A stretch of 64,000 nt of DNA from Phyllosticta citribraziliensis (lineage: Eukaryota), in assembly GCF_038025025.1 (NCBI RefSeq), contig NW_027117338.1, forward strand, positions 496,001 through 560,000, given 5' to 3'. The notes beneath the pieces were generated by a model that did no database searches, was not told the DNA's origin, and saw nothing but the letters and a program-made list of their open reading frames with translations. Position numbers and translations under genes: made by a program. How positions within the stretch are numbered: the stretch's first letter is position 1; the number at the start of each line of letters is the position of its first letter. This document shows positions 2,603-62,701 of the stretch, one piece after another.

Positions 2603-3023
2603 GACACGCTACTTCTCAGCCGTTGGATATTGGGGCGATGGACCCGCAAGTTGCAGCGGTTGGGTTCCGTAGTGGTCGACTGACGGCTCGGGTTTTGGTG
2701 ACGGTCGGCTGGCATTGGAATCTCTTGGTTTCCAAACTTGGTGAGCTCTTCGTAGAGCTATGGGTCTGTACTTGGCGACATGGCGCTCCTAAAAGACTGA
2801 ATACCCAATAGAAAAAAGGAGAGTTTGGACGTGTCAGCTACACATGAATGAATTGGTGATCCAAAAATGGATGACAGGTTATTGAACGCGACTGGGAAGG
2901 CTCTGTATAACAACAAATCTGTTGGAATACTCGACCGGTTAGCATATAAAGGGGGACGAATGCTCCTTGTGCGCATCATTCACAGCACTAGAATGCTCCC
3001 TGTGCGCAACGTGAATTGACTTT
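2601..3023 (+). repeat. Non-coding 3' block duplicated at 5391-5659, containing 33-bp-period GAATGCTCC units (cores at 2925, 2958, 2991)
   Basis: Direct similarity, e.g. ggcattggaatctcttggttt vs ggcattgaaatctcttggttt; aaagggggacgaatgctcctt vs aaaggggacgaatgctcctt; cagcactagaatgctccctgtgcgcaac vs cagcacaagaatgctccctgtgtgcaac. Confidence 0.85.
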
Positions 3024-3698
3024 CTGTTGCCAAATCCGTACCTCCGATAGTCGAAATGAAGCAGACCAGGAGCTCGACACGGCCTTCACGATGAAATACT
3101 CCCTCGAGGAACGCCGAGGGCTATTCGAGGCCCTTGAAGAACTTGAGATTTTGTTGACTAGTCCCCACCAGCCCAAGCGGCAGGCGTCGTAGCTCTGTTC
3201 ATGGAATCCCTGAGCAAGGTTTGGCGAAGAAAATCTCCTGCGAATGATCAGCATTCGAAATGAGCAAGCCTTGGAGCTGGGGCGTACTTGATGAGGACGG
3301 TTGCCCGAGCCGACTGTCATGGTCCCTCGAATCGCTGGCCATCTTTGCAGTAAAGGCGAAAGTTCAAGCTCCAAAGTGAGAGAATCAAAAGATTTCGGTA
3401 GACCCTTTGGAAATGAGGAGGGTAATGGAGATTGACGTAGGGGAGATGACGGTGTTGATGAGCGGTGATCTTGGAAGAGGTCAAGAGGTTAGAGGTCGAG
3501 GTTTCGGTTTCGCAGAGCACAGAACAAATTCTGTGGGTTGTGCGCGACAACAACGCCGACAACAAACTGGAGCGTTTGGGAAGCGGCGTATCGGCCACGC
3601 ACACTGCAGGCGCAGCAATCACCTTGCCGACACGCCCGAAAGTCTGCGCATCTTGTCCGCAACGGCCTTCTCTCCGTCAACCTCAGCACTTCACCATT

Positions 3699-4448
3699 AT
3701 GGCTGATTCCCAGGACAATTCAGCCATCTCTGACAGCGGCACCGCTGGAACCAACATGGCTGATTCTCAGGAAATCTCAGCCAGACCTGGCTACGACACC
3801 GCTGGCCTTGACGTCAACCCTGTCCGCGACGGAACGAACATGCGAGCCTTTCGTGAATGGGAGGAGAGAGAGGTACGTATCAATCCAAATGAAAGAAGAT
3901 GCCTGCAACTAAGAAGCTCAACAAGATCGACGAAGCATGCGAGGAGGGAGACATGGCCAAGGCCAGTGGATTCGCTGAAGAGGCGCTTTCGGATCCAGCG
4001 CTTGGTTTCTTCTACAGAATCAAGTACGAGTGTCTACTGTGTGTGACGCCCGGCTACGATCCTTGGGAGCACGTGAAAAAAGCCCGAGAAGTCGTCCAAA
4101 TGGCGGAGAATTCCGTGATGAATGTGGAAGAGGTGAGTGACTCACTACGTTGAAACACACCATGTGCTGACAGTCTGAGTAAAGGATGAGACTCCAAACT
4201 CCACCAACGTTGAGGCTATCAGGAGAATGCGAGCATTTCTTGACGAGCGCGAGGCCGACCTTCTCGCAGAGGGCCAGGACCTGGCTGTCCATCAGGCAAG
4301 CAAAGACCAGCCTGACGTCGTTGGAGGAACACACTCGATCTTGAAAGAGGACACTGCGGCTGCGCATGAAGCTCCGATGGACACCAGCGTCGGCGTGGTA
4401 GGTGAAAAGCCCAAGCCGATCAAGCGAAGCAGAGAATCGGACGATTAA
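3699..4448 (+). CDS. Uncharacterised helical (TPR-like) protein, paralog 2; ends at first in-frame stop
   Basis: ATG 3699; phase-0 introns 3873-3925 (GTACGT..AAG) and 4133-4184 (GTGAGT..GCTGAC..AAG). Spliced: ..GTNMRAFREWEERE|IDEACEEGDMAKASGFAEEALSDPALGFFYRIKYECLLCVTPGYDPWEHVKKAREVVQMAENSVMNVEE|DETPNSTNVEAIRRMRAFLDEREADLL... Confidence 0.7.
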
Positions 4449-5349
4449 GATAAAACTTGCTCAAGAAGGTTCAGTTGGAGGAGGATACCGCGACAAGGTC
4501 AGAAGCTCCTGTAGACCCCAACACGCCTGTTTCCATGACATATTCCCCGCGGAAACTCGTGAAATGCTCAACACCCTTGCGACCTACTATGGTGAAGACC
4601 GAAGACGATGTGGACATCGACATGGCGGCCCCCAGCATCGAAGCTCGCGACCGCAACATCGCAACCATGGACAATGAATACGGTGGCAGCCACCTTCGTG
4701 CTGCAATTCATCAAGACCAGGGCTCTAAGCGTAGTGCTCTCCAGTGGTCAATACCGAAGATGACATGGAAATCGACGTGGCGGCCCCTAGCATTGAGGCC
4801 CACGACCCCTCTCCAGTGATCAAGACCCAGGACGACGCAGACGTCAACATCGCGCCGCCCAGCATCATCCAACACCAGATGCTCAAGTCCCACAGCCGTC
4901 AAAGCACACCCACAGAGAGCGAACAGAACACCCTTCGCACTGCAATTCACCAAGACCGCGTTTCGAAGCGCATGAACAGTCCCAACATTCCCGGCATGTC
5001 TGGTAGCCACGAGAAGGTCCTCCAGTGGAATGCCCGCTCGCAAATGCCTCCGCCGCCCACGAAAAGCCCAGAAGCTCCTCGCTTCAAGAAGCACTCTGTC
5101 TTACCCCTTCCAAAGCTGAACTTGACCGAGGCGAACCATGGAGGCCTCTTTCCCCGCCCGCTCACGCACCGCGAGATCACACCCGCAACGTCCGTAGCGA
5201 GCAGCGACAAGTCTGAGGCGAATCAGAGCGAGGCGTCTCCGATGCAGGAGTTCGTCGAGCCCATTTCGCCCATTGCGCGCAGGCCCACGCCGCTCTCGTA
5301 TGTTGAAACAGTCATCAAGACTGAGGAGGTGGACGAGGACGACGAGTAG
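4449..5349 (+). pseudogene. Frameshifted repeat-containing tail of paralog 2
   Basis: After TAA4446, coding-like sequence resumes in a second frame (4457 ORF) and then a third (4744 ORF). The motifs (V/I)(K/N)T(E/Q)DD..(D/N)(M/V/I)A(A/P)PSI x3 and LR(A/T)AIHQD..SKR x2 span both frames. Confidence 0.5.
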
Positions 5350-5390
5350 CAGCATTGGGGGAATCGTCGGTGACGGAGGTTAGGGAGGCT

Positions 5391-5659
5391 TGGATACGCA
5401 ACTCCTCAACAACTGGATGTTGGCGCCATGGGTGGTGGATTGGCGGTTCGGGTTTTGCTTGCCAGCCGGCATTGAAATCTCTTGGTTTTCTCGGTGAGCT
5501 CTTGGTGCTCTCGGTGAGCTCTTGGTGCAGCTCTAGGTCTGTACTTGGTGATAGAAAGAATGGAATGCCGAGTCCCGGCCTGCGAAAGGGGACGAATGCT
5601 CCTTCCAATCGCCTTGGACAGCACAAGAATGCTCCCTGTGTGCAACATAAGTGACTTTC
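5391..5659 (+). repeat. Second copy of the duplicated non-coding 3' block; GAATGCTCC cores at 5594 and 5627
   Basis: Matches 2601-3023 and carries a local 20-bp tandem duplication tctcggtgagctcttggtgc (5489-5528). Confidence 0.85.
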
Positions 5660-6134
5660 ATCTGCCGAATCCCCACTGCCCGCAGTCAATCCTCGCAGAG
5701 AACATGGTATTGAGTCTCGGGCCGGGCCATTACCTACAGCAAGCTGTTAGCGCACGGCACTGAAGGCAGCTAGTTGGAGACGTACGAGTTGGAAATCCAG
5801 GCCAGGGCGGCCGGACAACCACTCAACACCACCACTCTTTGCAAGCCAGTCAGGGGTAGAAGTCGACACGAATGAGAACTGACAGCAAAATCACAGACCA
5901 TTGTCTGCTCTAGACACAAAGTGACCTGGAAAGCTGCAATCCAGATAGGCAGCAGACACACATAGGGAATTGAAACTCTGTGGTCCTCCCGTCCTTTTGC
6001 GGCGTAGAGCACTGGCCGTCGAGCGCCAACGCTCATTTAGCTGCTCGGCGTGAGGATGTGTTGAAGTGATGGCCACGGTGATGCAAACGACCCATCTGCA
6101 CCACCGCAGCTTTCATCGCGCAGCTCCCGTCACC

Positions 6135-6899
6135 ATGGAGCCGAACGGAAATCCCTGCTCTACTGTCCCCATTCAGCCTCTTGTGCACCCGGAAGAACTG
6201 AACCATCCGTGGTTCGTCGAGGTACGCGGAGATTGGACGAGAAGAAACTGGAAGATTCTTAACAACGCAAACAGTACGAAGCCGCGTGGGAAGCCAACGA
6301 CCTTCAAAGGGTTGACTGCCTCTGCAGAGCCGCGGTGGAGGATCGACGCGCCAGTCTGACGGCTCGCTTCAGGGCCAGTGTGACGCTTGCGGGCTTGACC
6401 TCCGGCGGCGAGCCCTGGGAGCACTACAAGAGAGCCCACGTCTGTGCAGCAATTCTCCAGCACGCAGCCATGACGGTCAGTGGTTACAGCATTCCATTCG
6501 AGAGAAATTGGGGGACTAACGAGGAAGTAGAGCCCGGATGCATATAGCCGCCACCTTGAAGTCAACATCGACGGAGTCCATGCGATGTTCGGCATCCTCA
6601 AGGTCCTGGAGCATAACATAAAGGAGCTCGATAAGTGCAATCAGCGCGATTGGCTTCAGAACGTGGCGAGCAAGCTCTTGGGACCCCAGCAGGGTGAAGC
6701 GGCAGAGCAGCCTCAGGCCATGGTGCAAGAAGAGCCGTCCGCCGCCGCCGCTGCCGCCGCTGATGCTATGGCTGAGATCGCCGCGAACACCACCGCTCCC
6801 GACAGCCCCCCTCCCGATCCCACGATCGACCGCCCCTGGACAAAACGCGAGATCGCCAAGGGACTTGAGATGGTCAAGGCGTGGAATGCGACCCACTAA
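6135..6899 (+). CDS. Uncharacterised helical (TPR-like) protein, paralog 3
   Basis: ATG 6135; phase-0 introns 6222-6274 (GTACGC..CAG) and 6476-6530 (GTCAGT..CTAAC..TAG). Exon 2: YEAAWEANDLQRVDCLCRAAVEDRRASLTARFRASVTLAGLTSGGEPWEHYKRAHVCAAILQHAAMT. Exon 3 starts SPD..VNIDGVHAMFGIL, as in paralog 1 (SPD..VNFEIIDCMRSFL). Confidence 0.65.
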
Positions 6900-6965
6900 G
6901 ACAAGGTGGACAAGGAGGACAAGACAGATAGACGGAATTGGATGATTCAGAAAGCGGAGAATATG

Positions 6966-7235
6966 TGACTGTGGTAGCGCACGAAAGCTCCCTCTGCGCG
7001 ATTGTGGTGGCGGAAGAATGCTTCTTGAGTGCGAACGCAGCAATGGACGACAGACTTTTGGGCGACTGCTCCATAGGCGCGACTGTGGTGGCGAAAGAAA
7101 GCTCCTTGGACGCGGACAGAGCGGAAGAAAGCTCCTCAGGCACAACCATAACAGTGGACGATAGCGTAGTGGATGACGGCTCCTGCGTGTAATTGTAATA
7201 GCGTACGAAAGCTCCCAAGGTGTGACTGCGGTAGT
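6966..7235 (+). repeat. Degenerate ~33-bp minisatellite, core GAA(A/T)GCTCC
   Basis: Cores at 6983, 7016, 7064, 7097, 7127, 7175 and 7207 (several spacings of 33, others 30-32 or 48). Unit approx. tgactgtggtagcgcacgaaagctccctctgcg. Confidence 0.75.
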
Positions 7236-7437
7236 TAGCAATCCTGGCGGCAGACCGCCTCCAGACACGTGCATGACGCAGTTTGACAAGTTGACAGACG
7301 CAGCTCTTTGAAACCGGGACAAGAAACAAGAGAAAAAAATGGATTGACAGAGTGACAGAGAAGAAAGTGCAGAATGACGCTACCATGCCAGATTCCTCGC
7401 GAAGACGCCGTCGACTAAATCTATACCAGGAGTACAA

Positions 7438-9267
7438 CTAATTGTCAAACCAGCGGCCCCAGCTGCCCTGTTTCTTCCGCTCCGCACCGGCAAACTTACT
7501 CTCCTCCTCCTCCCACACGAGCCTCTCGACGCGCCTCCGTGCCGAAAACGCTCTCGCGAACCGCCAGGCTTCCGTGTCGGCCAAGTTCCACGCCTCGACG
7601 GCGTCCTTGACCTTTGCCATCTCCTTAAAGTTGGAGATGACGGCACGCCGCGCCTTGGCAAAGAGTTCCTCCTCGGCGGCAAGTTCGGCCTGCGTGGGTA
7701 GAGGACCTTCACCGGCTGCGGGCTTGGGAGGGGGCGGGCGGCGCTCCGGGCCGGGGACGGGCGTCTCTGAGCGGCCATCGTCTTCGGGCGAGTCGGGAAG
7801 CTCAAAGCCAAACAGCCAGTTGAGGTCCTTTTGCGACTCGCGCTCGGCGGTCAGCCAGATGGTGTGGTGGGAACCGTGCTCCGAGGCGACGGCTTCTTTG
7901 AAGTGTGAGATGCGGGTCGACGCGCTCTTGCCAGTCCCAAGCAGCTCTTTCGTCACAGAAATGAGCCACAGGTCGCGCTCCTTGACCTCGCGGCGCAAAA
8001 ACTTGGCGTCAATGGCGTCGCGCTGGTAGTTGAGCGACAAGAACGTGTACGGATGCGGGACGGTGCCAATGGTAAAGAGCTGCGAGTCGTTCCGGTAGAT
8101 GGGCATGAGCTGGATGCGGCGCGAGCTCACATTCGAAACGCAGGGCTTGCATTTGCGGTTTGGTGGGCAGGACGACGGCATGGGCGAATCCGGGCACTGC
8201 GTGAGGTTGCGGGCGAGGTCGACAGCCTCGGAAACAAGCGCCGTCATGTGTGCGGGGACGGGCTTGAGCACAGCAATGCCCTTTTCGAAAATGTTTTGCC
8301 AAGTGTTGTGCAAGTGTGAATTCATGAGTTGCGCGAGCGTGTGGAGTCCCTGGGCGCCGTCCTGGTCCAGCACCTTGACAACGTCCTTGTATTTTTCGCC
8401 GACAGTCTCCAAATCGTACACGGCAATGGCGTCTCCTTCGGGGTTGACTGTGAACAGGTCTTTGGGGATTGCGTCAATCATCGTCTTGGCTTTTTGGAGC
8501 TCCGGGTTATCGAGGGCCGCCTTGATGGCCTTGTTGATGGCGTCCTTTTCTCCGACGTAGAGACCTGTGCGCAGCGGCTCAAAGCGAGTCAACTTGGGGT
8601 ATTCTCCGCGACGAAGATAGGTCATAAAGTGATCGTCGTAGGGAGCCATGGGCAGCGTCAGCCAGTTGGCGAGAATACCACTGCCCATGTTGCCCCATGC
8701 CAGCCAACGGGCAAATTCCAGTTCCAGCCTCTTCAAGTCTGGCGTTCCATCGAGGTTGGCCAGCTGCAAGGTCTTGTATAGGGGGTTATTCAGGGCTTCA
8801 GGCCTGCCCAGGACAACGGGCTTGAAACCTTGTGCCCACCACGCTCTTCGCCATTGTAAAAGCAGCCTCTGTTCTGCTGCGCGTATTGCCGGATCTTGTT
8901 TGACTTCGCCATCGTAAAAGGTGTAGACTAGAGGCCTGGTGTGCAGGGGAGGCAGCACTGCCCTGTTCTCGTCGAGAGTGATTGAGGATGAAAAGGGATT
9001 CTTCCATTTCCAGTCACTAAACCAAGACGACGTCCCACTAGTACTATTTGCTTGTATCGGCGGCTTGTGGACGGAGACGAAGGGATTGTAGGATTGCGGG
9101 ATCGATATCGACGGTATCTTGGGATTCTTGACGGCCTGGGATATCTCGGAGACGCTTGGGACGTGGTCGACCTTTGTGGGAGATCCAAAGAGGAAAAGAC
9201 TGCAGACGAAGAATACAACCACCGCGAGCACCACCTTGTACCGGGGAGGGATAAAGATTCCAGGCAT
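7438..9267 (-). CDS. Conserved fungal hypothetical type II membrane protein (~609 aa)
   Basis: Intronless ORF from MPGIFIPPRYKVVLAVVVFFVCSLFLF (single N-terminal TM), a P/S stem, then a globular domain with WRRAWWAQGF, RWLAW and a Cys cluster CPDSPMPSSCPPNRKCKPC. Confidence 0.8.
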   Translation of the reverse strand: MPGIFIPPRYKVVLAVVVFFVCSLFLFGSPTKVDHVPSVSEISQAVKNPKIPSISIPQSYNPFVSVHKPPIQANSTSGTSSWFSDWKWKNPFSSSITLDENRAVLPPLHTRPLVYTFYDGEVKQDPAIRAAEQRLLLQWRRAWWAQGFKPVVLGRPEALNNPLYKTLQLANLDGTPDLKRLELEFARWLAWGNMGSGILANWLTLPMAPYDDHFMTYLRRGEYPKLTRFEPLRTGLYVGEKDAINKAIKAALDNPELQKAKTMIDAIPKDLFTVNPEGDAIAVYDLETVGEKYKDVVKVLDQDGAQGLHTLAQLMNSHLHNTWQNIFEKGIAVLKPVPAHMTALVSEAVDLARNLTQCPDSPMPSSCPPNRKCKPCVSNVSSRRIQLMPIYRNDSQLFTIGTVPHPYTFLSLNYQRDAIDAKFLRREVKERDLWLISVTKELLGTGKSASTRISHFKEAVASEHGSHHTIWLTAERESQKDLNWLFGFELPDSPEDDGRSETPVPGPERRPPPPKPAAGEGPLPTQAELAAEEELFAKARRAVISNFKEMAKVKDAVEAWNLADTEAWRFARAFSARRRVERLVWEEEESKFAGAERKKQGSWGRWFDN

Positions 9268-9629
9268 GGCGATGAGTCGGCGGTTAGGACATTTGTCGGA
9301 GGTGTTGAGGTTTGCCCCTTGGTGGATTACGTGGCAACGGCGGGGCCGCGAGAATGAGTGAGTGGTAGCGAACGAGGTCGAGCAAAGACGCAGCAGTGAA
9401 GCTAGGCGGATTCGGACGTGACTGATACGAATCAACAGCCAGATGCGTCGGGAGAAGGACGCGACGTACGGAGCGCACAACGCCATCTCAGCCCTACCGC
9501 TCTTGGCGCGCAGGGTCCCGCCATTCCGCTTGGGCCGACTTCGGAGCCCTTCCCCAGCTTTTTGGTTGCGTACTCATCGACTCATCGCTCAATTGGAGCG
9601 CTCCTCTCTACACCATCCAATTCCTCGCC

Positions 9630-12600
9630 ATGGCTCAAAACGGAGCTTCAGTGCTGCCAGACCCCGCAGCCGACTTGCATTGGAGCAACTACCGCGGAGG
9701 CAAGCCTTTCAAACTCCACAAAAGAGCTAGTGTTGACTCACGCAGCCATTCACGAAATCTTCGCCGCCAACGCTACAAGACACCCCGAGAGACCATGTGT
9801 TGTCGAGACCAAGAGCGCCCATACACCAGAGAGATCCTTCACCTACAAGCACATAAATGAGAGCTCGAATCAGCTCGCGCACCACTTTCTCGCCCATGGA
9901 TGTGAGCGTGGAGATGTCGTCATGGTCTACGCCCACCGCGGGTTAGCAGCTTCACCATTGTTGCGGGCAAATCTAACGTGATGCAGCGTTGACCTCGTCG
10001 TAGCCTACATGGGAGCTCTCAAGGCCGGAGCAACAGTTAGCGTCCTCGATCCGCAATATCCTCCCGACCGCCAAAACATTTACCTCGAGGTTGCCAACCC
10101 CAAATTCCTCGTGCAGATTGAGCGTGCAACTGAGGAGGCCGGTCAACTCTCAGACAAAGTCAGAGACTTTATCAACAAGAATCTGACCATCAAGGCCGAA
10201 GTACCGGCGCTGAAGCTTCGGGATGATGGCACGCTTGCTGGTGGTGAGGTCGGTGGAAAAGATTGTTTGGAGGCACAAGAGGCTCTCAAGAGTCAATTGC
10301 CAGATGTCGTGGTTGGCCCCGACTCGATTCCCACCCTGAGCTTCACCAGTGGCTCCGAGGGAAGACCCAAGGGTGTTCAAGGACGTCACTTTTCTTTGAC
10401 CTACTACTTTCCTTGGATGGCGGAGCGATTCAACTTGTCTGAAAATGACAGGTTCACCATGTTGTCTGGCATTGCTCACGACCCGATTCAGGTACGTCAT
10501 CCAATCTTTTCCCCAGCGGTACTAACAGCAACAGAGAGATATTTTTACTCCCCTCTTCCTCGGTGCACAGCTGCTGGTCCCCAGCCGGGACGACATTGCA
10601 CACGAACTCTTGGCCGAATGGATGCGCAACCACAAGGCCACCGTAACCCACTTGACTCCGGCCATGGGACAGATTCTCGTGGGAGGTGCAAGTGCTCAAT
10701 TCCCGTCGCTTCACCACTCGTTTTTCGTTGGCGACATTTTGATCAAGAGAGATGTCCGCCGACTACAGGACCTCGCCCCCAACGTACGAGTCGTCAACAT
10801 GTACGGTACGACCGAGACTCAGCGTGCCGTGTCTTACTTCGAGGTTCCAAGCAAGAAGGACGATGCCGCATACCTCGACACCCTTGGTGACGTCATTCCG
10901 GCTGGCAAGGGCATGTTGGATGTCCAGCTTCTCGTTGTCGATCGCGAGAACCGGAACCGAATCTGCGGCGTTGGAGAACAGGGAGAGCTCTTCACCCGTG
11001 CTGGTGGTTTGGCCGAAGGCTACCTTGGCAACGACGAGACCACGGCTAAGCTCAACGAAGCCAAGTTCATTACCAACTGGTTCGTCGACCCCAACAAGTG
11101 GGTCAAGGAAGATGAAGAGAAACTGGCCACCGCCGGGAGCAAGGAGCCATGGAGACAATTCTACAAGGGCCCTCGCGACCGTCTCTACAGGACCGGCGAC
11201 TTGGGACGTTACACTGCCGACGGAAATGTCGAGTGTACCGGCCGCATCGACAATCAGGTCAAGATTCGGGGTTTCCGCATCGAACTGGGCGAAATTGACA
11301 CTCACCTGTCCCGCCACCCGCTCGTCCGAGAGAACGTCACTCTTGTTCGCAGAAACAAGGATGAGGAACCTACTCTGGTCAGCTACATTGTGCCCGAGAT
11401 GAAGCGTTGGTACCAATGGTTGGAAGAAAGAGGTCTTGTCAAGGATGAGTCGCCAGACGAGTCAATGGTGGCCATGCTTAAGAAATTCAAGCCCCTGTCA
11501 GAGGACTGCAAGAACCTCCTCAAGACCAAGGTGCCGTCGTATGCGGTCCCCAGTGTCTTTGTGCCGCTGGTCCGCATGCCTCTGAGTAAGTTTTCCCAAA
11601 CTGACTTGGTGCAGACTAACATGTACAGACCCCAACGGAAAAATCGACAAGCCCGCTCTTCCCTTCCCCGAGCCCACTGATCTTTTGCTGGCTGCTGGCA
11701 GGAGGCCCTCCCAAGTTCAAGCTGCCATGACTCCCACGCAAAAGGCCCTTACTGAGATCTGGGGCTCCCTCCTTCCCAACACCTCGGCGCGCATGCTAAC
11801 CCCCGAGTCCAACTTTTTCGAAGAGGGTGGACACTCCATCCTCGCACAGCAAATGCTTCTCAAGGTTCGCAGACATTGGAAGGGCATCGACGTTCCCATG
11901 AGCGTCATCTTCCAATCGCAGACGTTGGAAGCCTTTGCAGCCGAAATCGACCGAGCTCAGGATCCTGCTGGTCTCTACCTCGAAAACTTGCCCGCCCCTG
12001 AGGACATCACCGACGAGGCTTACTCTGCCGATGCGCGCGAGTTGGCACAACAGCTGCCTCAGACTATTCCCAGTGCGGAGATTGACTTTTCCCAGCCAAA
12101 GACAATTTTCCTTACTGGCGCCACGGGTTTCCTCGGATCATATCTGCTGCGCGACCTGCTCAACCGCAAGCACCAGGTCATTGCCCACGTCCGTGCCAAG
12201 GATGCAGCCAGTGGTCTCGACCGTATCATCTCCACAATGCAGGCCTATGGTACTTGGAATGAAGCATGGCGTCCTCAGCTCGAGGTCGTCACTGGAGACT
12301 TGACCAAGCCCAACCTTGGCCTCGCTTCGGAGTCTTGGGAGCGCGTTGTCAACAACGCTGACGCTGTCATCCACAACGGCGCACTTGTCAACTGGATGCA
12401 GCCCTACTCTTCTCTGCGTGCACCCAATGTTCTCTCCACCATGAACACGATCGCCCTTTGCACGGCCGGCAAGCCCAAGCAGCTGGGCTTCGTGTCGTCG
12501 ACTTCCACCCTCGACTCGGACCACTACATTCGTCTGTCCAAGGAGTCTGCCCCCGCAGGAGGAACTGGAGTGCAAGAGAGCGACGACCTTGAAGGCTCGC

Positions 12601-13349: not shown

Positions 13350-13477
13350 ATGGTTTTTCAGGGCGTAGAAAAAAGTGCCTGCAAAGGTTTAAGATGATAG
13401 TCATGAAATGTCATCAATCATACTCCATTGGCGTCTCTAGTCATCTACATCATCCACATCATCATCTCGTAACTTTT

Positions 13478-49480: not shown

Positions 49481-49537
49481 GGCTGGTGGAGGAGGGCGTG
49501 GTGATGGAGGCAGACGGACGTCGAGTTGGAGTGGGCC

Positions 49538-49597
49538 AAAATTTTTGTTGGAGGGAGGGCCGGGTCGGCGTCGGCGGCGGCGGCGGCGGCAGATGAG
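49538..49597. promoter_or_regulatory. RRPE-like (AAAATTTTT, 49538-49546) and PAC-like (GATGAG, 49592-49597) elements upstream of UTP5
   Basis: Both ribosome-biogenesis regulon motifs lie within 120 bp of the UTP5 ATG in otherwise GC-rich sequence. Confidence 0.45.
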
Positions 49598-50418: not shown

Positions 50419-53400
50419 ATGGCCGTCATGACCTCACCCGCAACGGACAAGCCGTCCCTGGATGCGAAACCCGTTCCATCTGCAGACACGATGGCTTTGG
50501 ACTCCAACATCAACGGGTGAGTCGGCTCTTTTGCATTCTCTTTACCCCAAGCCCATGTAGTTAATCGATACCGTCGCCCGCAGAAGCGCAAGTGATCATG
50601 ATCCTCTCTTTGATGAAGACCCGACACCTCACCTCGACCTGCCTGACCCGCCGCCCGCCGACACTACACACGACGACACCGTCGCCGCGACAAACGGCAA
50701 CGGTGCCATGAATGGAACATCCCCGACACCCGACGCCCTCCCAGTGAAAGATTCCTTGCCGGCACCTGCAGGCGACGCCAATGGTGGCATTGCGCCTACT
50801 GCGCCCATCCTCGCTGAAGATCCGCCCGACGTCCCGCGGACCCTTCCTCCCGCGCCTGACAGCCTCGCGACAACTACCCAACCTCCTTCGATCGACCAGC
50901 CTACCTCCAACGATCGCAAAGACCACACGGACGCCACCAACGCGACAGAGGACGTCAAGTCACCTCGCGACATGAACGAGCAGGAGTCTCACCTTCCTAC
51001 CGAGCCTGCGCAATCAGCGCCACTCTCGGATGCTGCCCCCGCCGACGCCGCGCCTTCTGCGGCGCCCGCCCCGCCCGCTGTCGAAACCACCGCGCCCACG
51101 AATGATGTCGAGAGCAAGATGGACATTTCTGAGGATGACAAGGCTGTGGCGCATGCTCCCGTGTCGGAGACGGTCACACACAAGGAGGAGCCATCTGAAC
51201 AGGTGTCTGCCATCCCTTCCACCGAGGTTGCGCCCCAAGCTCCCGCAACAGCCGGCGCCGGCCACACCAGCTTGAGCGCCGCCGCGAGTGCGACCCCGAC
51301 CGCCAGCGGGTCGGATCATCCGATGGAGGATGCGCCCGCAATGACCAAAACCAGGCCGCGCGAAGAGGACGAGGGCGACGACGGCCCGTCTGCGAAGCGA
51401 GCAAGAACCGCTGAGGGTACCGCCGAAGCTGAGGCAAAGCTGGTCGATGCGCCTGCGCCTGTGCCAACGACCAACGGAAATACATCGCAACCGCCAAAAC
51501 CAGCAAATATCGAGACGAACAACATCGCCGTCCCCACAGATGGTGCTCCGACCACTCCTGCCATTAGCAATGCGCCGGAGAAAAAGAAGTACGATGCAGC
51601 ACCACTCACTCCGGCGCAATACAAGTTCTTGATGGACCGCCTTCGCGGCGCGAAGAAGACCAAGTCTGCCGCGCCATTTCTCCACCCGGTTGACCCTGTG
51701 TCGCTCAACATCCCTCACTACCCGCAAGTCATCCAGCGCCCAATGGACCTTGGCACGATGGAGTCCAAGCTTCGGGACAAGAAATACCAGAGCGTCGACA
51801 ACTTCATGTCCGACTTTTACCTAATGATCGACAACTGCATCACCTTTAATGGAGCGGCGCATCCCGTCTCGCAGTCGGCCTGGAATATGCAAGTGTGGTT
51901 TGAGCGTGGAATGCACCTCTTGCCTGCCCGAGACGTCCAGGCGGACCCCCCGAAGAGGACGAAGAAAGCGAACAATGGTCCGCCAAAGGCTCGTCGCGAG
52001 TCTCGCGCACATGTTCCTGCGCACTCGCCCAAAGAGTCCAACACCCCGACGGTCACGTATGCTTTGCAAGCCGATGGAACGCCCTTGATTCGACGCGACT
52101 CGACGACCGGTGATGGCCGTCCGAAGCGAGAGATTCACAGACCACCACCCAAGGATCTCCCGTACACAAACCCAAGGCCCAAGAGCAAAAAGTCGCAACT
52201 GGAGCTCAAGTTCTGCGACATGGTCGTCAACGAAATGCTAAAGCCCAAGCATCAGGCCTTCTCCTATCCATTCCTCGCCCCCGTCGATCCGATTGCTCTC
52301 AACATTCCCCAATACTTGAAAATCATCAAAAAGCCCATGGACCTTGGTACGATTGCCAGCAGGCTCAAGCATGGCGAGTACAGTGGGGCCAAGGAGGTCA
52401 AGGCAGACATTGAGCTCATGTTTGCCAATTGCTTCAAGTTCAATCCCGAAGGAGACGAGGTCAACAAGATGGGTCATTTGCTCCAGGATCTCTTCAAGCG
52501 GACCTGGGAGAAGAAGGCGGACTGGCTGGAGCAGCATGCGCCGGCCTCTGACCCCGAGTCTGACGAGGATGAAGAAGAGGAGGAAGAGAGCGACGACGGG
52601 GAAGAGGAGGCCATTCGTCAGCGTCAGGCCGAGATTGCCCAGCAAATCATGAAGTTGACGCAGGAGCAGCTGGCCTTGCAGAACAAGAAGAAGAGTTCGC
52701 CCAAATACATCAGCAAGAAAAGTGCGAAGAAGGAGAAGGAGAGCAAGCCCAAGAAGGCTTCAAAGCCGTCCGTTACTCTCAAGCCCAAGAAGAAGCAGCG
52801 CCAGATCACATTCGAAGAGAAGCGTCTCATCTCGGAGACTATTGGCAACCTGGATGAGAATCAGATGGCCAGGGCAGTTCAAATCATCCGAAACGGAGTG
52901 CCCCATCTTCAGGTAAGTAGATTATCAACACCCATCAACAATGACCCTTGTTCGGCGCGATTGGCAACGGCTGTTTGCGGGTCGCAAGTGATACAATGGC
53001 TCATGACCCTATCACTTTATGGAGTTGGAGCTGACTCTGACAGGGTGTCAACGACGACGAGCTCGAGCTTGACATTGACACCATCCCGAACGACGTTCTC
53101 CACGACTTGCTCAAATACATCAAGAACGTGGCCCCAGACTCCATCGTGGTCCAGCAGCAGCCAGTAGCTCAAGACGACGACTACGAGCCTCCAACCCACA
53201 AGGGCCAGGCGCAGCCTAGAAAGAACAAGCCCATGGGCAAACATGAGCAGGAGGCTGCCATTGCGGACATTAAGCAGCGCTTGCAAAACTTCACCAACAG
53301 AGGTTCAAGCGATGATGCAAGCCCTGAACCTACTGGTAAGTTGGTCGGTCGTCTTGTTCCTCCCGTTCTAACACATTATGCAGCTGTCCATCGAGACGAC

Positions 53401-53445
53401 TCTGACGACGACGACTCGAGTGCGTCGGAAAGTGAAGAGGAGTAA
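50419..53445 (+). CDS. BDF1: BET-family double bromodomain protein with ET domain
   Basis: BD1 PFLHPVDPVSLNIPHYPQVIQRPMDLGTM..NCITFNG; BD2 PFLAPVDPIALNIPQYLKIIKKPMDL..NCFKFN; ET ITFEEKRLISETI..ELELDID; multiple introns. Confidence 0.93.
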
Positions 53446-54325
53446 GCTTCGAATTCGACGGCTACAAGCTGGCGTTTGAGGCGCAGCCATGGACAACTCA
53501 ATGGGACTTTCCATGTCGGCCTGCCCTCACCTTCTGCTTCCTCGCATACAGCCGGGACACACCCTCCTTGCGCATTCCCATTCGCTGTACAACAGTCCTC
53601 TTGCAAGCCCTTCATTTCCCCTGTGTTTTTTCACTCACCTTTCTTTCTTTCTGGTTCTTGTCGATAAAGTTGAAGCGTGCACTCTGCTGGCTAGCGGAGC
53701 CGTAGTTGACGATGGATGACTGACGTTTACGAGCGGGTTGGGATTCTGGGAAACAGAAAAGTCTGCTTCTTTCTCTACCAGGACGGAGGCGGTATTGCAT
53801 GAATTGAGGGCAAAAGAAATTTTTGGGAGCGGTGTGGGTTGGTTGACTTGCTTCCACAATACCTCTGACAACTACAGCCTGGTCCTCGGATACCCCGTGC
53901 CAGCAGCGAGGTTTGTACGGCAGGCAGTGACGGAGTTGGTGACGGATAAAAAGCCAGGACGTGGCACATGGCTTGCCGTGTGTCGGCCTGGCTCGGTTGA
54001 AAATTAGATAGTGGACGAGAAAACAAAAGACAATGATCTGTAATCGAAGCATCTTGCGGTGAGGTGTGTTTAGGCCGGAGGACAAGGAGGGAGCACAGGA
54101 GCATTCTTCTGCTGAGGTAAGAGACTACCGAGCCGCCGGTCTTGGCGGTTGTCGCGCATCGCGTTTCGACGCCCCAGCTTTGATTTTCCCCAAGCTTCAA
54201 CACCCAAACCGACAAGTCCGTTGCAAAATCCGATTCTTCCCTACCGCCCTTTTGCCACCGAATCTCAATCTTACCCTGACCTCCGACTACAACCCCTCGC
54301 AAATCCCTCAAAGACCGCCATCGCC

Positions 54326-55937
<1,612 letters not shown>

Positions 55938-56196
55938 GTGGTGGACGAGTCGGGTGGAGTTTGGTGCGTTTCTGCTGCTGGGCCATGGTATGGATGGATG
56001 GATGGATGAATTCGATGAATGGAGATGAGGCGGGCTTGTTCCCCCTTTTTTGACTTACGCTTTTTCCTTTCTGACCGGTTGCGGGTGGGCGTGGAAAGAT
56101 TTCGTTTGCGCACGCCGTCGAGAGACCCAAGACGAGAGCGTGCGAAGGACCAGGCGTCGGCAGTTGGCTTCGTACGCAATGCATCGTAGGTAGGAC

Positions 56197-56197
56197 G

Positions 56198-56229
<32 letters not shown>

Positions 56230-56260
56230 AGAAGAAGAAGAAGAAGCAGCAAAAGAAGCA
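56197..56260. repeat. Compound (GCA)n(GAA)n microsatellite
   Basis: Read directly from the sequence. Confidence 0.9.
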
Positions 56261-57173
56261 GTAGAAGGAGACGACGTAATAACATCCATCCTAATTCCAA
56301 CGAACACACAAGCCTGCCTGCCTGCCTGCCCACACATTAAACACACACGCTGAGCTTCTCCGTTGGTACTCTTGTTTCCGTGAGGTGAAGTCAATCTAAC
56401 TCACCAAGGCAGCTTACTACTAGCTTCCCGGCTTGCTGGACCGCCGGCTGAGGAGTTGAAAAGTGTAAGCGTTGCAAGAGAGAAAGAAAGAAAAAAAGAA
56501 AAGAAAAGAAAAGAAAAAAAGACGGTAACCCGCGATTTCGTCTGCAGGCCCCGTTACCCAAGCTAGCGAGAGAAGGGGGAGGGGAGAGAGATGGCGGCGT
56601 GGGTACAGTGAGGGAGGTGCCGGTCTCCATACCGCAGTCAAGAAAGCAGCATTTACTTGTTGGTTCAGGGGTGTGAGATGTGAAACACCCGATCAAGGAC
56701 GTGTGGACTGTGTAGGTGACTCTTTTCAGGAAATGTATGTATCTACATGATGGATTTAAAAACGAAGAGAAAGAGCCTAAGGGGATAGGTATATAGGTAG
56801 GTGCTTTTCATGTTGGTTCTCGATTTAACCTACAGTAGCCCGTATTTCCCACCCACTACAATCCAGCTCTCAGAAAAGAGCGACTGCGTGGGACGGTACA
56901 GACACTTGGTTGATGATCTGATGTTTTTGCGGTGGTCACTTACCATTGACCTACCTACCTGACTGGGTACCCGCACTGAGTACCCGCACCTGTACCTACA
57001 TGTCTGTGGGTTATTCTATCCAACTTGCTTGAGCAATGTGGCCAGTCCGCCCGCTTCCATCCTCTCCTACCCCCTAGCTACGCACCTCTCCACCCCCGTC
57101 CCCTGAGCCGCTTACTCAACCACCTACCTGTCTGCCTATGTCCGTCCCCATCCACCACCTCCCCAAAGAACTC

Positions 57174-58634
57174 CTACTCGAATCCAACGCCCGCCGCCTC
57201 TCTATACCCGACGCCCCTCCCCTCTTCCAGCTCCCGCGCACCCATCTCACAAACAGCCACGCCCTCCACCCTAACGCCCTCCGCCCACACAAACCCGTCA
57301 AACCGCTGCATCACCTCCCTCGCGTCGAATTTGCCGCTGTCTCTGCTCTTCTTTTTGCCACCACCGCCCGCGCGTCCCCTTCTCTCCTTGGCGTAAATGG
57401 TGTTGACGACCGTGGCATGCAGCCGCAGCGGGCGGTCGTCCGGCACGAGCAGCGGCGCAAAGGCGTCGCGCACGGCGGACGCGAAGGCGTAGAGGCGGGC
57501 TGTCGGGTCGTGCGGCGCGGCGTAGAGGATTGATGTGCGGGTGGGACTGTGCATGGGGTGCAGGCCGCGGAGGGAGAGCGTGAGAGGGGGTTCATGGGGT
57601 GTGTTGCCCGTTTCCGAGGGTGGGTGCGCGAGGTGAGGTTGGTTTGCGAATTGGGATGTGGATGTGGAGGAGTGGAGGAGTGACGAGAGGTTCAGGCTGC
57701 GCAGGAGCTCGTGGGCGCGCGCCATGCTGGCGTCGTCGCGCAGGGACATGACGCCGAGGGTCAGGTGCAGCGTGCCGACAGGGCGGACGGCCGAGGGCGG
57801 GAAGGGTGATGCTGCTGTTGCAGTTGCTGCCGTGCCATGCGTCGTGTTGTCGCCATTGCCCGGTGTCTGCGCTGGGTATTCCCCATTCGACCTCAGCGTG
57901 TCGCCATCCGTGCTCTTTTCAGCTGCCCGTCCGTGGTCGTACGCTCCCCTTCTCTCACCACCTCCCTCCTCTTCCCCCAACACCTCGCGCCGAAACCGCG
58001 CCATCGACGCTTCGAGCTGCGGCCGCGACGCATCCGTCACGAGCGGGATACACAAGAAATGCGTGAGCTGCGGCTTTTTCTCCCCTCCCTTTCCCTTTCC
58101 CTTTGCAGTTCCCTTCACCGAGCCCGCAGAAGCAGAAGCGGTTCCTCCAGCTGATGCCACTGGCAGCGTCTCTTTCGCGATGCCTGTGCTTTGAGCAGAT
58201 GCTGCCGCGTCCGCGGCGTCGGTCTGAGCGTTGGATGACGAGATGGTGGCCGTGGAATGCGCCAATGCGAGGGCGCCCGGATCCGAGTTTCCCGAGGCTG
58301 CGGTTGTCGAGAGAGTGGATTGGCCTCCTCCATTGTGGTCGCTTCTCGTCGCGCTGCGCCGCGGCATGTCGGGCAACAGAGAAGATGAGATGGTCGAGTG
58401 CGAGTGAGAGCGGCGATGTTGGGCGGGGAGTCGCGACTCGACTGCCGAAAACGCCAATGGCAAGGCGGAGCGTTGTGTTTTTGTTTCTGTTCGCCGACCA
58501 ACCGTTGGTTGTAGTTGTCGAGGCGTTGGAAGAGAGACGGACGCAGGGCGAGGGAAATATTTTTGCAGAGAGCGTCTGCAAGACAAGCTTGTAGAAGCAG
58601 CACCGCAAGACGTGGCTGCAGCAAAAAGTGGCAT
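57174..58634 (-). CDS. 2H phosphoesterase (AKAP7/ASCC1-like 2',5' RNA ligase-like domain); alternative start at 58367
   Basis: LTHFLCIPL, first HxT (LHLTLGVMSL), second HxT (LHATVVNT), FDAR, VAVCEMG. Confidence 0.85.
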   Translation of the reverse strand: MPLFAAATSCGAASTSLSCRRSLQKYFPRPASVSLPTPRQLQPTVGRRTETKTQRSALPLAFSAVESRLPAQHRRSHSHSTISSSLLPDMPRRSATRSDHNGGGQSTLSTTAASGNSDPGALALAHSTATISSSNAQTDAADAAASAQSTGIAKETLPVASAGGTASASAGSVKGTAKGKGKGGEKKPQLTHFLCIPLVTDASRPQLEASMARFRREVLGEEEGGGERRGAYDHGRAAEKSTDGDTLRSNGEYPAQTPGNGDNTTHGTAATATAASPFPPSAVRPVGTLHLTLGVMSLRDDASMARAHELLRSLNLSSLLHSSTSTSQFANQPHLAHPPSETGNTPHEPPLTLSLRGLHPMHSPTRTSILYAAPHDPTARLYAFASAVRDAFAPLLVPDDRPLRLHATVVNTIYAKERRGRAGGGGKKKSRDSGKFDAREVMQRFDGFVWAEGVRVEGVAVCEMGARELEEGRGVGYREAAGVGFE

Positions 58635-59399
58635 GAGTCACTTGCAGACGTCCTGTTGTCTGCTTGCCCGTTTGGGAAGTCGCCTCAGTCTGGAGATGAG
58701 ACCGGATGAGGGCTAGGCTCGGCACGTGAGATGCTGATCAGGGTCCTCAGGTCGACCTGACGACTCTTGATGTAACAACCTGTGGGAAAGAATGGTTTAG
58801 CCAACCGTCAGGTTCCCAAGATAAGAAGCGCCAAATGTCCAGCTAACCGGGTCGCAGAGGGAGCTCGGGCGCAGGAGGGGCTGGACGGGCACGACGGGAC
58901 CGAGTCGCAGGCCAGCCATGGAGAAGACCCGACTGGAGTAGCAGCCACAATGACACGTGCCGAGGCAAGGGTGCGGTGCGGTGCCGCCGGGTCCCCTTCT
59001 GGGGGGAGTCGGGTTCTAGAATAGGTACCAGATATGACCCTTTCTGGTCGGGTTCTAGAACAAACACACACGCATGACACGATTTTGTGACAGAAGTCGA
59101 GGCAGGAGAAGCTCGAGGATTCGAATTCAAAGAGTTTGGAAAATAATTGAGAAGCGGAGCCGCCCATGCTATCTCTGCAGAGCCGTAGCCCGTGCAGCAG
59201 TTGTCTTTGTTAATAACGAGTTATCCAGAAAACCCATAAGTCATGATTCCAGAGAGACGCAGCCGTTCATCTTCTTCCTCGTCCAACTACACACTCCCGT
59301 CCCTCGACGCTCCACGGCCCAGCCGAGGGCTCGCGGCGGCAGCAGTAGTCCGGCTTGCTGACATGGTGCACACACAAACGGTCCCCCCACCCCCCTCCC

Positions 59400-60048
59400 T
59401 TAGGACGTGTCGTCGTGGTAGAATTTGCGCAACACCTTCTCAACGTCCTTGAACTCTTGCTTGGCCTGCGCAATGATCTTGGTCAGGCGCTCGAGGCAGA
59501 CCTTGTCGTCCGGCTCGTCGTGGGTACCCGTCTCGTCCTTGTGCGCACCAAAGTGCTGTATCTTTTCGCAGCTGTCCTTGACCTTTGTGAGGCCGAGCGT
59601 GGCGGATGAGCCCTTGAGGAAGTGGCCGAGCTGGGAGAGCTGGTTGAGGTCCTTTTTTTCACTATGACGCGAGAAGAGGAGATGACGCGTCAGCGTGGGG
59701 GACAAGGGAGGGAAAAGGGAAAAGAAGAAGGGGAAAAAAAAAAAAAAAAAAAAAGGGAGGGGGTCCTCACAGGCTGGTTTCCATCTTCTCAAAGGTGCTG
59801 TCGGCTTGCTGGAAAAAGTCAAAGACGATGCTCTTGCTGAACTCGCGCTCCTCCTCGTCGTCATCCATTTCGAGAATCTGCTCAAAGGTTGCCGTGTCGA
59901 TGGCATCGCCAGCTTCGGGCAGGCCAGTGGAGCCCTCCTCGCTCTGTCGGGTCATTGCTGGTCAGCCGTGGAAACGAAGGCGAGAAGATGGCGGATAAAA
60001 CGGTCGGGGTCCTACTTTGTCCTCGGGATGATCGGTCGCCCGAGCCAT
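59400..60048 (-). CDS. YPD1: Histidine phosphotransfer (HPt) protein
   Basis: TFEQILEMDDDEEEREFSKSIV..FFQQA; LSQLGHFLKGSSATLGL..CEKIQHFG. Two introns, the second with a long poly-T tract. Confidence 0.95.
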
Positions 60049-60747
60049 GTCTATGATGTAGGGGGATGTGATTCGCGCGTCCTTTGTGCGGGAGGTCGTC
60101 GCGTGGCGGGGGTGGGATGAGAACGGCGGGTGGGCGACAGGAGCGGCAATGGGGTGAGGTCAGAGTCTTGGAAGCGAGACAGAGACAGGAAGGATTTTGA
60201 AATGGGCGGAGGAGTGGGTGGCTGGTTGGTTATGGCGTGGTGGACGGGGGCGGGCGGTGGGCGGTGGGCGGCGGGCGGCGGGCGGCGGGCGGCGGGGCAC
60301 GGGCACAGGGCAGGCGATGGGTGGAAAGGGAAGGTAGAGGTGGGAAGGGAAATGGAGATTGTAGAACCCGAGGTCGAGGTCGAGGTCGCGGTCGAGGTCG
60401 GGGCGAGGCAGGCAGAGGCTGGCTGGCTGGCTGGCGGGCGGGCGGGGAGGGGGAGCAAAGACAGCAGACAGACAAAATGACCGCGCAACGGGCCGACGAG
60501 TTGCTTGAGGTGAGCGGGCGAGGGATGAGGATGGAGGAAATTTTGTGGTGCCGGTTGGTCGAGAGGTGGACCGTGAGCAAGGTGAACAATGGGCACCAGG
60601 GCAGCACGCACCTCAGCACCAGCATGCGGTGGGTGGAGGGGAAGGGCGCGGCGGGCGGGAGGGAGGGCAGTGCGTGAGCTGGTGAGGTGTGCTTAGGGAG
60701 GGAGGGGTGGGGATCCAGGTTCAGGCGCCGACTCTGTCACTCACAAC

Positions 60748-60818
60748 CCTCTCTCTCGCGCCCTCTCTCTCTCGCTCTCTCGCTCTCTCGCTCTCTCGCT
60801 CTCTCGCTCTCTCTCTCA
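60748..60818. repeat. (CT)/(CTCTCTCG)-type low-complexity tract upstream of YPD1
   Basis: Read directly from the sequence. Confidence 0.85.
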
Positions 60819-62586
60819 GCGGTTGACTTTGGCCGTCATGTGCCATCCCGGCGCCGCATCCCGTCGTCGCCGGCCATGACGCTATCCATGGCGACATGAC
60901 CACGGGGAGCATTCCCAGCCAGTCCGCCGGCCAGCCATGAGCCCAAGCCTCTTCACGGCTTCGTCTAGACGGCCACTAGCAACATCTAGACCTCGACGAC
61001 TGGTTGATATAGCTCACGGGCTGATGGGCCTAACCTGACGTCGGGTCCGCATGGTGACGTATTTGGGCAGGGCAGGGCAGGGGCCAGTGGAATACCTTAC
61101 GTAGCCAGTGTAATGTGAAAGTGGCTGTTTTGCTCCCCGCTCCCGCATCTGAGTGTCCGTTGGGCGATCTTTCCTCGCTTTTGTCGCCGGCTCCCGAGCC
61201 CCGACCGCCCGGCACCCCCCTCTCCCCCCCCGCCCGCCTCGGCTGACCACTCTTCTTTGGCTTCTTCTCCCCTTCCACTGCAGCACCTGCACTGCACCAC
61301 CTCGGAATCGCCATTGATGCGCTCCATCAACCGCCAGCTTCGATCGATTCTCAACGAGAGAGCCTCAATCTACCCCCCTCGACTGGGAGCCTCCCTGTCC
61401 CCGAGCCCTACATTTTCGGCTACCTTTTTTTTCTCATTGGCCTTCACATGGCTTGCATTTTTTTAAGCTTTCACCCAACAAGCGACGGCCTGTCCGTACG
61501 TCGTCATAGACTGTGCAACTTGTCCGTGGGAATACGAAGACTCGACGAGGCGGCAGGGGCCAGGCCTTTGAATAGTCATCACAGCTGTCACGAATTAAAC
61601 TTGGCCACCACCGCGCAGCAGAGACTGCAATGCTGCGGATGCTTCGCAAACTGACTGACTCCATGTACCTACTCGTACAATCATCTGCGGCCCGCGTGGC
61701 AGCTGACTGCCTTTCCAGGTCCTCTACCGACACCCCTGCATCCCATCCCCAGTCCCTTGGCCCTGGTTTCCTCGATGCCCGCCTCATTGCAACAACAGCT
61801 GCCGGAAAAAAAACTGCTCCCATCCCGGACATGCTTCTCACCCCATCTTCTCCTCCGCCGTCACCGCTCCTCAACATCCCACCCACGCTGCACTGCATCC
61901 ATCCACATGGCCGGTTCTGCACAGCCTCCTGCTCATCCAATCTGCACCTCCAAATGACGTCGCCCAAAACACGCTTCCAGCTTCCTCTTGCGTCCCGCCC
62001 AGCATGACACTCGGTACTCGACCCACTCCTCTGGAAAGCCCATAGCCCTCTGAAACGGCAAAACCCAGCATCCCGCGCCACAATCACGGGAGATGCGCTT
62101 TCGGGAGCCAATCTTCCCGCCCACCAGCCTTGTACTTGCCGTTTCCTCTGGGGAAAAAAGAAAAGAAAAAGAAAAAAAAAAAAAAAAAAAAACGGGTTGT
62201 CGTCGCCTAATGCTGGGGGTTTCCGGCATCACTGCCCAATCTGGAGCCAATCCCGACCATGCGAACCCTTCCAAGATTCTACCAAGAGATTTGATCTGCA
62301 GCTTTGGCTTTGCTGCTGCTTTCTGGAGCGCTCCATGGGGCGGCATGCGCTTTGTGATGGATTTCTCATTGTTGACCAAGAACTCCAGGCTGCCAGATTC
62401 CTCGACTGTCCACTGAGGTGGCCACAGCACCGAGTCGGCGCTCTGGATGGTGAATTTGTTATGCCGGAACTTTTCAAGCCGAACACTTGAAGATTAGTCT
62501 TGAGGGGCACCTGCTCCCTTCTATGCCGCCTCCCTCCGCTCTGAAGACGCGGACGAGATGATCGTGACCTCCTGGCAATATGAGTG

Positions 62587-62701
62587 CACTTGGGGAGCAT
62601 TCATCTGCTACTTCAGTCACGCTTAAGGAGCATTCATTTACTACTACAACCACACTTAGGGAGCATCCGTTCACTGCTGCATCTCGACTTGGGGAGTCTC
62701 C
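62587..62701 (-). repeat. 33-bp tandem repeat (~3.5 units), inverted member of the family seen at 2.9, 5.6 and 7.0 kb
   Basis: GGAGCATTC at 62594 and 62627, GGAGCATCC at 62660 and GGAGTCTCC at 62693, each exactly 33 bp apart. The reverse complement of unit 1, tgactgaagtagcagatgaatgctccccaagtg, matches 6966 tgactgtggtagcgcacgaaagctccctctgcg. Confidence 0.85.

Follow-up and report, generated by a model that had tools for sequence, protein, structure and literature searches.

Two families of miniature inverted-repeat transposable elements carrying a 33-bp-phased repeat in Phyllosticta citribraziliensis

Short DNA motifs that are carried and multiplied by transposons have been described in plants. 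Miniature inverted-repeat transposable elements, or MITEs, are reported to have amplified the sites of host factors, including E2F in Brassicas and also bZIP60, PIF3, and TCP (Morata et al. 2018, PMC5950925). In Arabidopsis, the targets of VANC proteins in VANDAL elements consist of a 9-bp motif (Hosaka et al. 2017, PMC5735166). This study concerns a 64,000-bp stretch of the fungus Phyllosticta citribraziliensis (called the window; G000:C1:496001-560000, where G000 is the 31.35-Mb, 22-contig genome), in which a 9-bp core, GAATGCTCC or a close variant of it, recurs in arrays with a period of 33 bp. A sequence-only reading of the window had offered four explanations of the repeat: a phased array of protein-binding sites, a mobile or non-autonomous minisatellite, an RNA element processed from 3' untranslated regions (UTRs), and a micropeptide made of 11-residue repeats. 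It also proposed that three paralogous genes and the repeat could form a protein-target system.

Two further bodies of published work bear on the comparison. The CMCT clade of transposons is described as comprising EnSpm/CACTA, Mirage, Chapaev, Transib, Plavaka, and ESTA, as well as Lanisha, with 5'-CA..TG-3' termini, target duplications of 2–5 bp, and transposases marked by the motifs C(2)C and H(3-4)H; fungal EnSpm families are given 3-bp and Plavaka 2–3-bp duplications (Kojima 2025, PMC12730594). Repbase sorts such elements by their ends and duplication length (PMC4455052). The response element of the AbaA/TEA regulators is given as CATTCY (Mead et al. 2020, PMC7531577).

Two MITE families with an internal minisatellite

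The repeat of 33 bp makes up a minisatellite inside MITEs, which are non-autonomous transposons of the cut-and-paste type. The sequence at 62.6 kb in the window had 53 matches in the genome, with a common terminal inverted repeat (TIR) starting CACAGTGGG. A pattern made from this TIR (approximately 23 bp, CAC..GTG) had 201 matches in the genome and 0 in the control. Within the DNA fetched there were 51 distinct two-ended copies of this family, designated A, and 33 of them were flanked by an exact 4-bp target duplication; none had a duplication of 5 bp or longer. The 33 duplications comprised 28 different 4-mers (74% G+C), and random pairing of flanks produced a mean of 1.07 and a maximum of 6 exact duplications. 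The target sites had a palindromic bias, and the ends were CAC in 44 and GTG in 41 of the 51 copies. Copies were 119–248 bp long and included classes of 152, 185, and 218 bp, which are steps of 33 bp, and the gap between sites was 33 bp in 73 of 85 cases. Because most nearest neighbors were only 70–95% identical (the closest pair was 98% identical), family A is mostly old.

A second family, B, with elements of 135–260 bp, had 61 genome matches and inverted ends unlike those of family A. An exact 3-bp duplication, mostly GTC/GAC, was present in 10 of 23 copies, with none of 2, 4, 5, or 6 bp; shuffled flanks gave a mean of 2.9 and never reached 10 in 10,000 trials. The core and the period are those of family A, and the units are arranged head-to-tail in both families. 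The spacers of each family matched the matrix of the other (P=0.0002 vs. shuffles), with absolute scores that were negative, which suggests that the A and B units are distantly related.

The mobile-minisatellite option of the sequence-only reading was right: family A is a MITE family with TIRs and 4-bp duplications. The families have TIRs, target duplications that vary between sites, and short, non-coding, dispersed copies; the duplications were judged on the copies of the family, the window copy retaining one of its two TIRs. It is close to certain that both families carry YGAATGCTCCY units in varying number and that the 62.6-kb array is a family-A copy minus one end. The possibility that the unit is a fragment of a known transposon family, raised in the same reading as an outcome that would count against it, was half right, in that the unit is a transposon fragment but a published description of its family was not found. 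A search of titles and abstract openings, with partial coverage and Repbase outside it, yielded no prior description of A or B, and no report of the CAC..GTG/4-bp signature in fungi was found in the literature, again at partial coverage. A and B are undescribed MITE families of a fungus, each with a minisatellite inside.

Family A matches the description of the CMCT clade in its 5'-CA..TG-3' termini (here CAC..GTG) and in a 4-bp duplication that falls within the 2–5-bp range of the clade. It differs in that 4 bp is neither the 3 bp of fungal EnSpm families nor the 2–3 bp of Plavaka. A 4-bp duplication with CAC ends is the signature of Chapaev; Transib elements make 5-bp duplications, which were found in 0 of the 51 family-A copies. 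From the ends only, we infer a CMCT-like superfamily for family A. The ends of family B are mixed CA/CG, a weaker fit to the clade; its 3-bp duplication matches PIF/Harbinger, and an insensitive scan of G000 with PF13359 gave no match.

One single-copy sequence of 218 bp (L063:306-523; G000:C13:1208205-1208422) has family-A ends and a 4-bp duplication around an AT-rich interior that lacks phased cores. It may be a deletion remnant of a lost autonomous element. Because it has A ends and a 4-bp duplication without phased cores, the ends are enough for a jump.

Other candidates for larger elements were rejected. At L051, 4.5 kb between two outward-facing A ends had neither a matching duplication nor a transposase, and the locus reads as two separate eroded A copies around a gene with an Ulp1-like lead; the product of that gene (L051:3736-4806; G000:C8, − strand) has Ulp1/Peptidase_C48-like Atlas neighbors (0.91–0.94, recognition below threshold) and no Pfam match. 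At L068, outward-facing arrays around 6.7 kb enclose an ordinary-looking long open reading frame (ORF), a putative asparaginase. At L056 an A half-copy lies beside a gag-like ORF, and no long terminal repeat (LTR) was found. That ORF (L056:1569-3227; G000:C9, − strand) is one uninterrupted frame that matches a copia-type gag and, less strongly, gag a second time, with no pol or LTR seen nearby and the truncated A copy just upstream; it is possibly a domesticated gag.

The phased repeat was also counted genome-wide. The exact pair GAAWGCTCC-N24-GAAWGCTCC occurred 97 times (control 0), and pairs with free spacing occurred 150 times (control 1). Among 100 pairs listed, with lengths transcribed by hand, 57 were spaced at 33 bp, 22 at 34 bp, and 11 at 37–38 bp. 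The 9-mer itself occurred 1,743 times (control 99), compared with 291–386 expected from Markov models. Cores and elements were dense in some regions (G000:C1 1.45–1.69 Mb and 2.35–2.46 Mb) and scarce in samples taken at round coordinates. In the JGI metagenomes the TIR pattern had 0 matches. The 27 metagenome loci with a phased pair were rejected as unrelated minisatellites or coding repeats on inspection; two of the 27 matched the hidden Markov models (HMMs) of the families, in the repeat units only.

Elements, arrays, and single cores in the window

The features of the window are listed in Table 1. The element at 62.6 kb was 87% identical to the intact copy L032 over 158 nt (positions 1–158 of 186) and 92% identical to L031 over 136 nt, and matched the family-A HMM with E=1.6e-42. 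Its TIR differs from the 23-nt family TIR by 2 mismatches, its spacers (62594–62701) match the family-A matrix (P=0.0002), and contigs derived from other copies extend into the end that is missing at 62566. Both this TIR and the relic end at 302–366 (family-A HMM, E=5.5e-7) were omitted from the list made in the sequence-only reading.

Table 1 Features of the window related to the phased repeat
Feature	Position	Strand	Remarks
Relic family-A end: last core and degenerate TIR	302..366	−	72% over 65 nt to L121 positions 148–212
Paralog 1	840..2599	+	tblastn of public model P0004; helical domain and low-complexity tail
Array 1, three phased sites, heavily decayed	2925..3008	+	A-HMM E=8.7e-5; B-HMM E=5e-5
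Paralog 2	3699..5349	+	tblastn of public model P0001
Array 2, duplicate of array 1	5579..5644	+	copied along with the 3' region of the gene
Paralog 3	6069..6899	+	public model P0002; stop at 6897–6899, ahead of array 3
Array 3, roughly eight units of family-A type, internally deleted	6964..7237	+	between two convergent genes
Single core	54098..54106	−	no partner; no pyrimidine 5' flank
Single core	60906..60914	−	no partner; no pyrimidine 5' flank
Stretch bypassed in a related organism (run X5)	62489..62745	.	contig aligns on either side; joint 62488->62746
Family-A MITE copy, four-unit (185/186-bp) class	62566..62722	−	one TIR intact; last ~28 bp with the other TIR lost
Four 33-bp-phased sites in the MITE	62594..62701	−	two exact, one with 1 mismatch, one degenerate adjoining the TIR
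TIR, begins CACAGTGGG	62700..62722	−	TIR pattern matches exactly at G000:C1:558702-558722

In contigs of run X5, which comes from a related organism, the sequence passes directly from 62488 to 62746. This joint was present in one contig at a depth of 25, and its ends (GA..GA) show that it is not a splice; the organism carries other family-A copies. The skip is in keeping with a site that lacks the element in that organism, with the proviso that it comes from one contig and is wider than the element. Runs X7 and X9 were without cover over the 62.6-kb array, and the cover of run X2 there derives from other copies. Copies with more or fewer units appeared as joints in contigs.

Exact copies of GAATGCTCC numbered 8 in the window, both strands together: 2958, 2991, 5594, and 5627 on the + strand, and 62594–62602, 62627–62635, 60906–60914, and 54098–54106 on the − strand. 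In 200 runs of an order-3 Markov simulation the mean was 1.0 and the maximum 4, so that the excess reported earlier was real, although the chance expectation of roughly 0.5 given with it was slightly low. The two lone cores at 54098 and 60906 are probably background, since about one such match is expected per window. Degenerate cores with 1 mismatch were found at 6983, 7016, 7064, 7097, 7127, 7207, and 62660–62668, with 2 mismatches at 2925 and 7175, and with 3 mismatches at 62693–62701. The claimed 33-bp phase was present in the 2.9-, 5.6-, and 62.6-kb arrays but was kept only in part in the 7-kb array, whose gaps are 33, 48, 33, 30, 48, and 32 bp.

The 7-kb array (array 3) resembles the 62.6-kb array outside the core, as had been suggested: its spacers match the family-A spacer matrix (P=0.0002 vs. 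shuffles), and the array matched the family-A HMM with E=5e-11, 2e-9, and 3e-6. Chance as the source of the likeness and of the spacing was not borne out, given that P value and the genomic count of 97 33-bp pairs against 0 in the control. The HMM gave no match at E<=1 on the reversed window. No terminal repeat or target duplication was found for array 3, and its best TIR-like match had 12 mismatches of 23; it is very probably an end-less derivative of family A. The interval 302–7270 was rejected as a single large element, its right end not being found.

For arrays 1 and 2 the pooled spacers gave P=0.02 with the A matrix and P=0.03 with the B matrix, which is weak evidence of a likeness to either family and, for array 1, of a family assignment. 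Positions 2949–3037 and 5585–5672 are 77.5% identical, and 2672–2753 and 5432–5506 are 75.6% identical. Because both arrays sit in a block duplicated with the gene (76–78% identity), they would count as one event, and we think it reasonably probable that they are one older relic that was duplicated along with its gene.

Both genes flanking the 62.6-kb element lay under deep RNA-type contigs (59400–60050 and 63161–63930). The gene at 59.4–60.0 kb is spliced at 59944–60015, and the 63-kb gene has a DUF1674 match.

The conserved core as a putative binding site

Among 29 family-A copies taken from the TIR match list, identity was 0.87 in the columns of the core (consensus YGAATGCTCCY) and 0.72 in those of the spacer (P=6e-5), and 0.89 and 0.76 after removal of columns in CG/CA/TG context (P=0.001); these column statistics treat related copies, and also the columns, as independent, and the P values are optimistic. 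The TIR columns had an identity of 0.92. Several end-less arrays had kept their cores beside almost random spacers; the cores were exact in L078 at 6 of 7 sites (gaps 32–34) and in L068 at 9 of 11, with a spacer identity in each of 0.39 compared with 0.34 after shuffling; such arrays were found through their intact cores (two sites per array were required), which inflates core conservation. Three others, L074, L077, and L081, were ordinary local tandem repeats with similar units. In 200 kb chosen for core richness there were 46 cores: 6 adjoined A ends and 2 adjoined B ends, 14 belonged to end-less arrays, and 24 were single. The single cores had a pyrimidine flank in 19 of 24 cases on each side. 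Substitutions were mostly transitions, yet they were unpolarized against the unit consensus, and so no case for repeat-induced point mutation is made.

Three arrays have features of their own. L078:9082-9290 (G000:C12) consists of seven cores at 32–34 bp, is without ends, and has spacers that are unrelated to one another; its last spacer contains an 11-nt match, possibly by chance, to the family-A terminal repeat. L077:8767-9134 (G000:C8) is an eleven-site array that is apparently intronic, with a branch-point-like motif and AG just downstream and coding-like DNA on both sides. L079:9171-9326 (G000:C5) has the same core at a period of 22–23 bp (and 15 bp), showing that the core seeds other tandem units too. 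CRISPR-like capture of spacers was rejected: in A and B the spacers at different loci are related, and those of L078 (= L215) were unmatched elsewhere within the DNA fetched.

The conservation of the core suggests, at good probability, a putative site for a sequence-specific protein, repeated about three helical turns apart, with selection keeping both the core and the spacing. The phased binding array proposed in the sequence-only reading thereby has indirect support from core conservation; its TEA/AbaA form does not. The opposite strand of the core reads CATTC, as in the AbaA/TEA element, and the genome has one TEA-domain gene. The likeness ends at the sixth base, where 287 of 319 cores have A or G and so run opposite to what AbaA prefers; an AbaA/TEA array was not supported, as CATTCY is present in only 32 of the 319.

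If a DNA-binding or chromatin protein recognizes the core, it could be encoded by the host, for which we would put the prospect a little short of even and slightly ahead of a protein encoded by the elements, itself a serious contender; that no protein is involved seems improbable. The host factor is slightly favored because two transposon shells share the motif, ends alone allowed at least one jump, and immobile arrays retain the motif. An element-encoded helper is still likely because the units share descent, the cores cluster with elements, and the core-less L063 was not amplified. In the mechanism that we propose, the elements would have been spread by a transposase that recognized their terminal repeats in trans, and units would have been gained or lost by slippage or unequal exchange. 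A protein would prefer cores about three helical turns apart, and selection for binding would hold core and phase while the spacers drift. On this view a binding module of the host would have been multiplied and carried about by the MITEs, as E2F sites were in plants. We offer, as a tentative proposal, that YGAATGCTCCY at a 33–34-bp phase is the predicted target of a host factor, DNA-binding or chromatin-related, that is undescribed and belongs to this fungal lineage, that two MITE families with different ends would have taken up this module and spread it, and that some end-less arrays may be kept by the host, with only core and spacing surviving.

Several points weigh against the account of the repeat as a whole, beyond the two statistical limits given above. 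An exact duplication is missing from 18 of the 51 two-ended A copies. The skip in X5, of 257 bp, is off the ends of the element and comes from a single contig, and the intervening letters are not known. No transposase or autonomous partner was found in G000 by scans with PF02992, PF13359, and PF18759, and no DDE family in 138 ORFs near elements, both searches being insensitive. The cores are clustered, with 1 in 160 kb at round coordinates compared with 8.9 if they were even, which is unlike a general promoter factor.

The best-surviving alternative, which we regard as rather unlikely, is that the core is purely a signal of the elements, a subterminal site for a transposase or accessory protein (like TnpA of CACTA or a VANC-type anti-silencing protein), so that the end-less arrays would be dead copies. 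This would account for a core whose conservation comes close to that of the TIR, for cores that cluster at elements, and for the failure of L063 to amplify without cores. The units of A and B share descent, and each of the two shells may be CMCT-like; however, A and B differ in their ends and duplication length, and such differences usually mean different transposases. Moreover, the end-less arrays keep exact cores after their spacers have been randomized, for which an immobile copy would have no element-level reason, and the same insensitive searches (three Pfam scans of G000 and 138 ORFs) found no such gene.

Mutator-like elements make 9-bp target duplications. The parallel with VANC lies in a 9-bp motif that was built up by tandem-repeat formation in non-coding DNA of elements, and also in the unrelated AT9TSD1, as reported by Hosaka et al. 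(PMC5735166); there the protein is encoded by Mutator-like elements, whereas here no such gene was found and the ends are not Mutator-like. The proposed host-factor site has a close parallel in the plant MITEs, where one short motif is carried by differing families and redistributed by them in intergenic DNA; in the account of Morata et al. (PMC5950925) there is a known factor, with in vivo binding demonstrated for E2F, whereas the case made here is from conservation alone. The strict 33–34-bp phase is a feature of this fungal case.

Neighboring genes and remaining readings of the repeat

Positions 840–6899 of the window hold a tandem cluster of three genes with a conserved helical exon of approximately 70 residues and low-complexity tails. 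Named relatives of the paralogs were Phyllosticta proteins only; the Atlas neighbors of paralog 2 were unnamed Ascomycota proteins, with nothing better than TPR-like leads at 0.83. The C-terminal residues that end P0002 also end P0003, its orthologue in a second species. A search with the exon found 6 loci, of which 4, a lower bound for the genome, lie outside the window.

A protein-target system, with the repeat bound or processed by the proteins of the three paralogs, is very improbable. All three window genes have an array 70–330 bp from their 3' end, so that the statement that an array lies behind every paralog was correct inside the window, but arrays 1 and 2 would be a single duplicated event, and at the four outside loci no phased pair lay within about 1.5 kb, nor did the 10 kb fetched contain a 3' array. 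The co-location of the genome-wide repeat with the paralog family was thus not found; phased pairs are spread over at least 17 contigs. A MITE lay 1.8–2.8 kb upstream at two of the four outside loci; for arbitrary stretches of 10 kb the figure was 2 of 16 (P=0.16 by Fisher's test). The paralog proteins matched no Pfam family, and hence no Pfam nucleic-acid-binding family. Because 0 of 4 outside loci had a phased pair and the upstream MITEs were indistinguishable from those of arbitrary stretches, we conclude that the pairing of gene family and repeat is local.

The units have a similarly slight chance of being an RNA element processed from 3' UTRs. Runs X2 and X5 have spliced-RNA-type contigs that contain family-A sequence, and the gene ends next to arrays were 3' ends rather more often than 5' ends (31 vs. 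17 neighbors); however, the arrays were sense to the 3' neighbor in 15 cases and antisense in 16, which is no strand preference, and five loci gave no Rfam match. The stable fold (z=−4.7) is mainly the pairing of the two terminal repeats, and the centroid leaves most units open.

An 11-residue repeat micropeptide is the least probable reading: although the proposed frame was stopped in just 3 of 73 A units and three of four array-3 indels preserve it, both of which speak for a peptide, one opposite-strand frame was equally open (3 of 73), variability at codon positions 1/2/3 was flat (0.29/0.30/0.26) with no third-position bias, the 62474–62728 frame is without a methionine, B units and several free arrays have stops in that frame, and 0 of 69 arrays overlapped a coding-like segment in a low-sensitivity model that flags only 11% of random DNA.

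At the least, these results add two undescribed MITE families to a fungal genus, and they explain an eye-catching repeat as transposon residue, not as a new protein-target system. The motif, its helical phase, the two transposon shells, and the end-less arrays that hold the motif only make a ready set of probes for finding the protein. Its identity would show either that fungal MITEs carry host regulatory sites, as those of plants do, or that the two families share an element-encoded helper. If a host factor is involved, this would be a fungal case of a transposon-driven regulatory or anti-silencing network, with well over a thousand extra sites.

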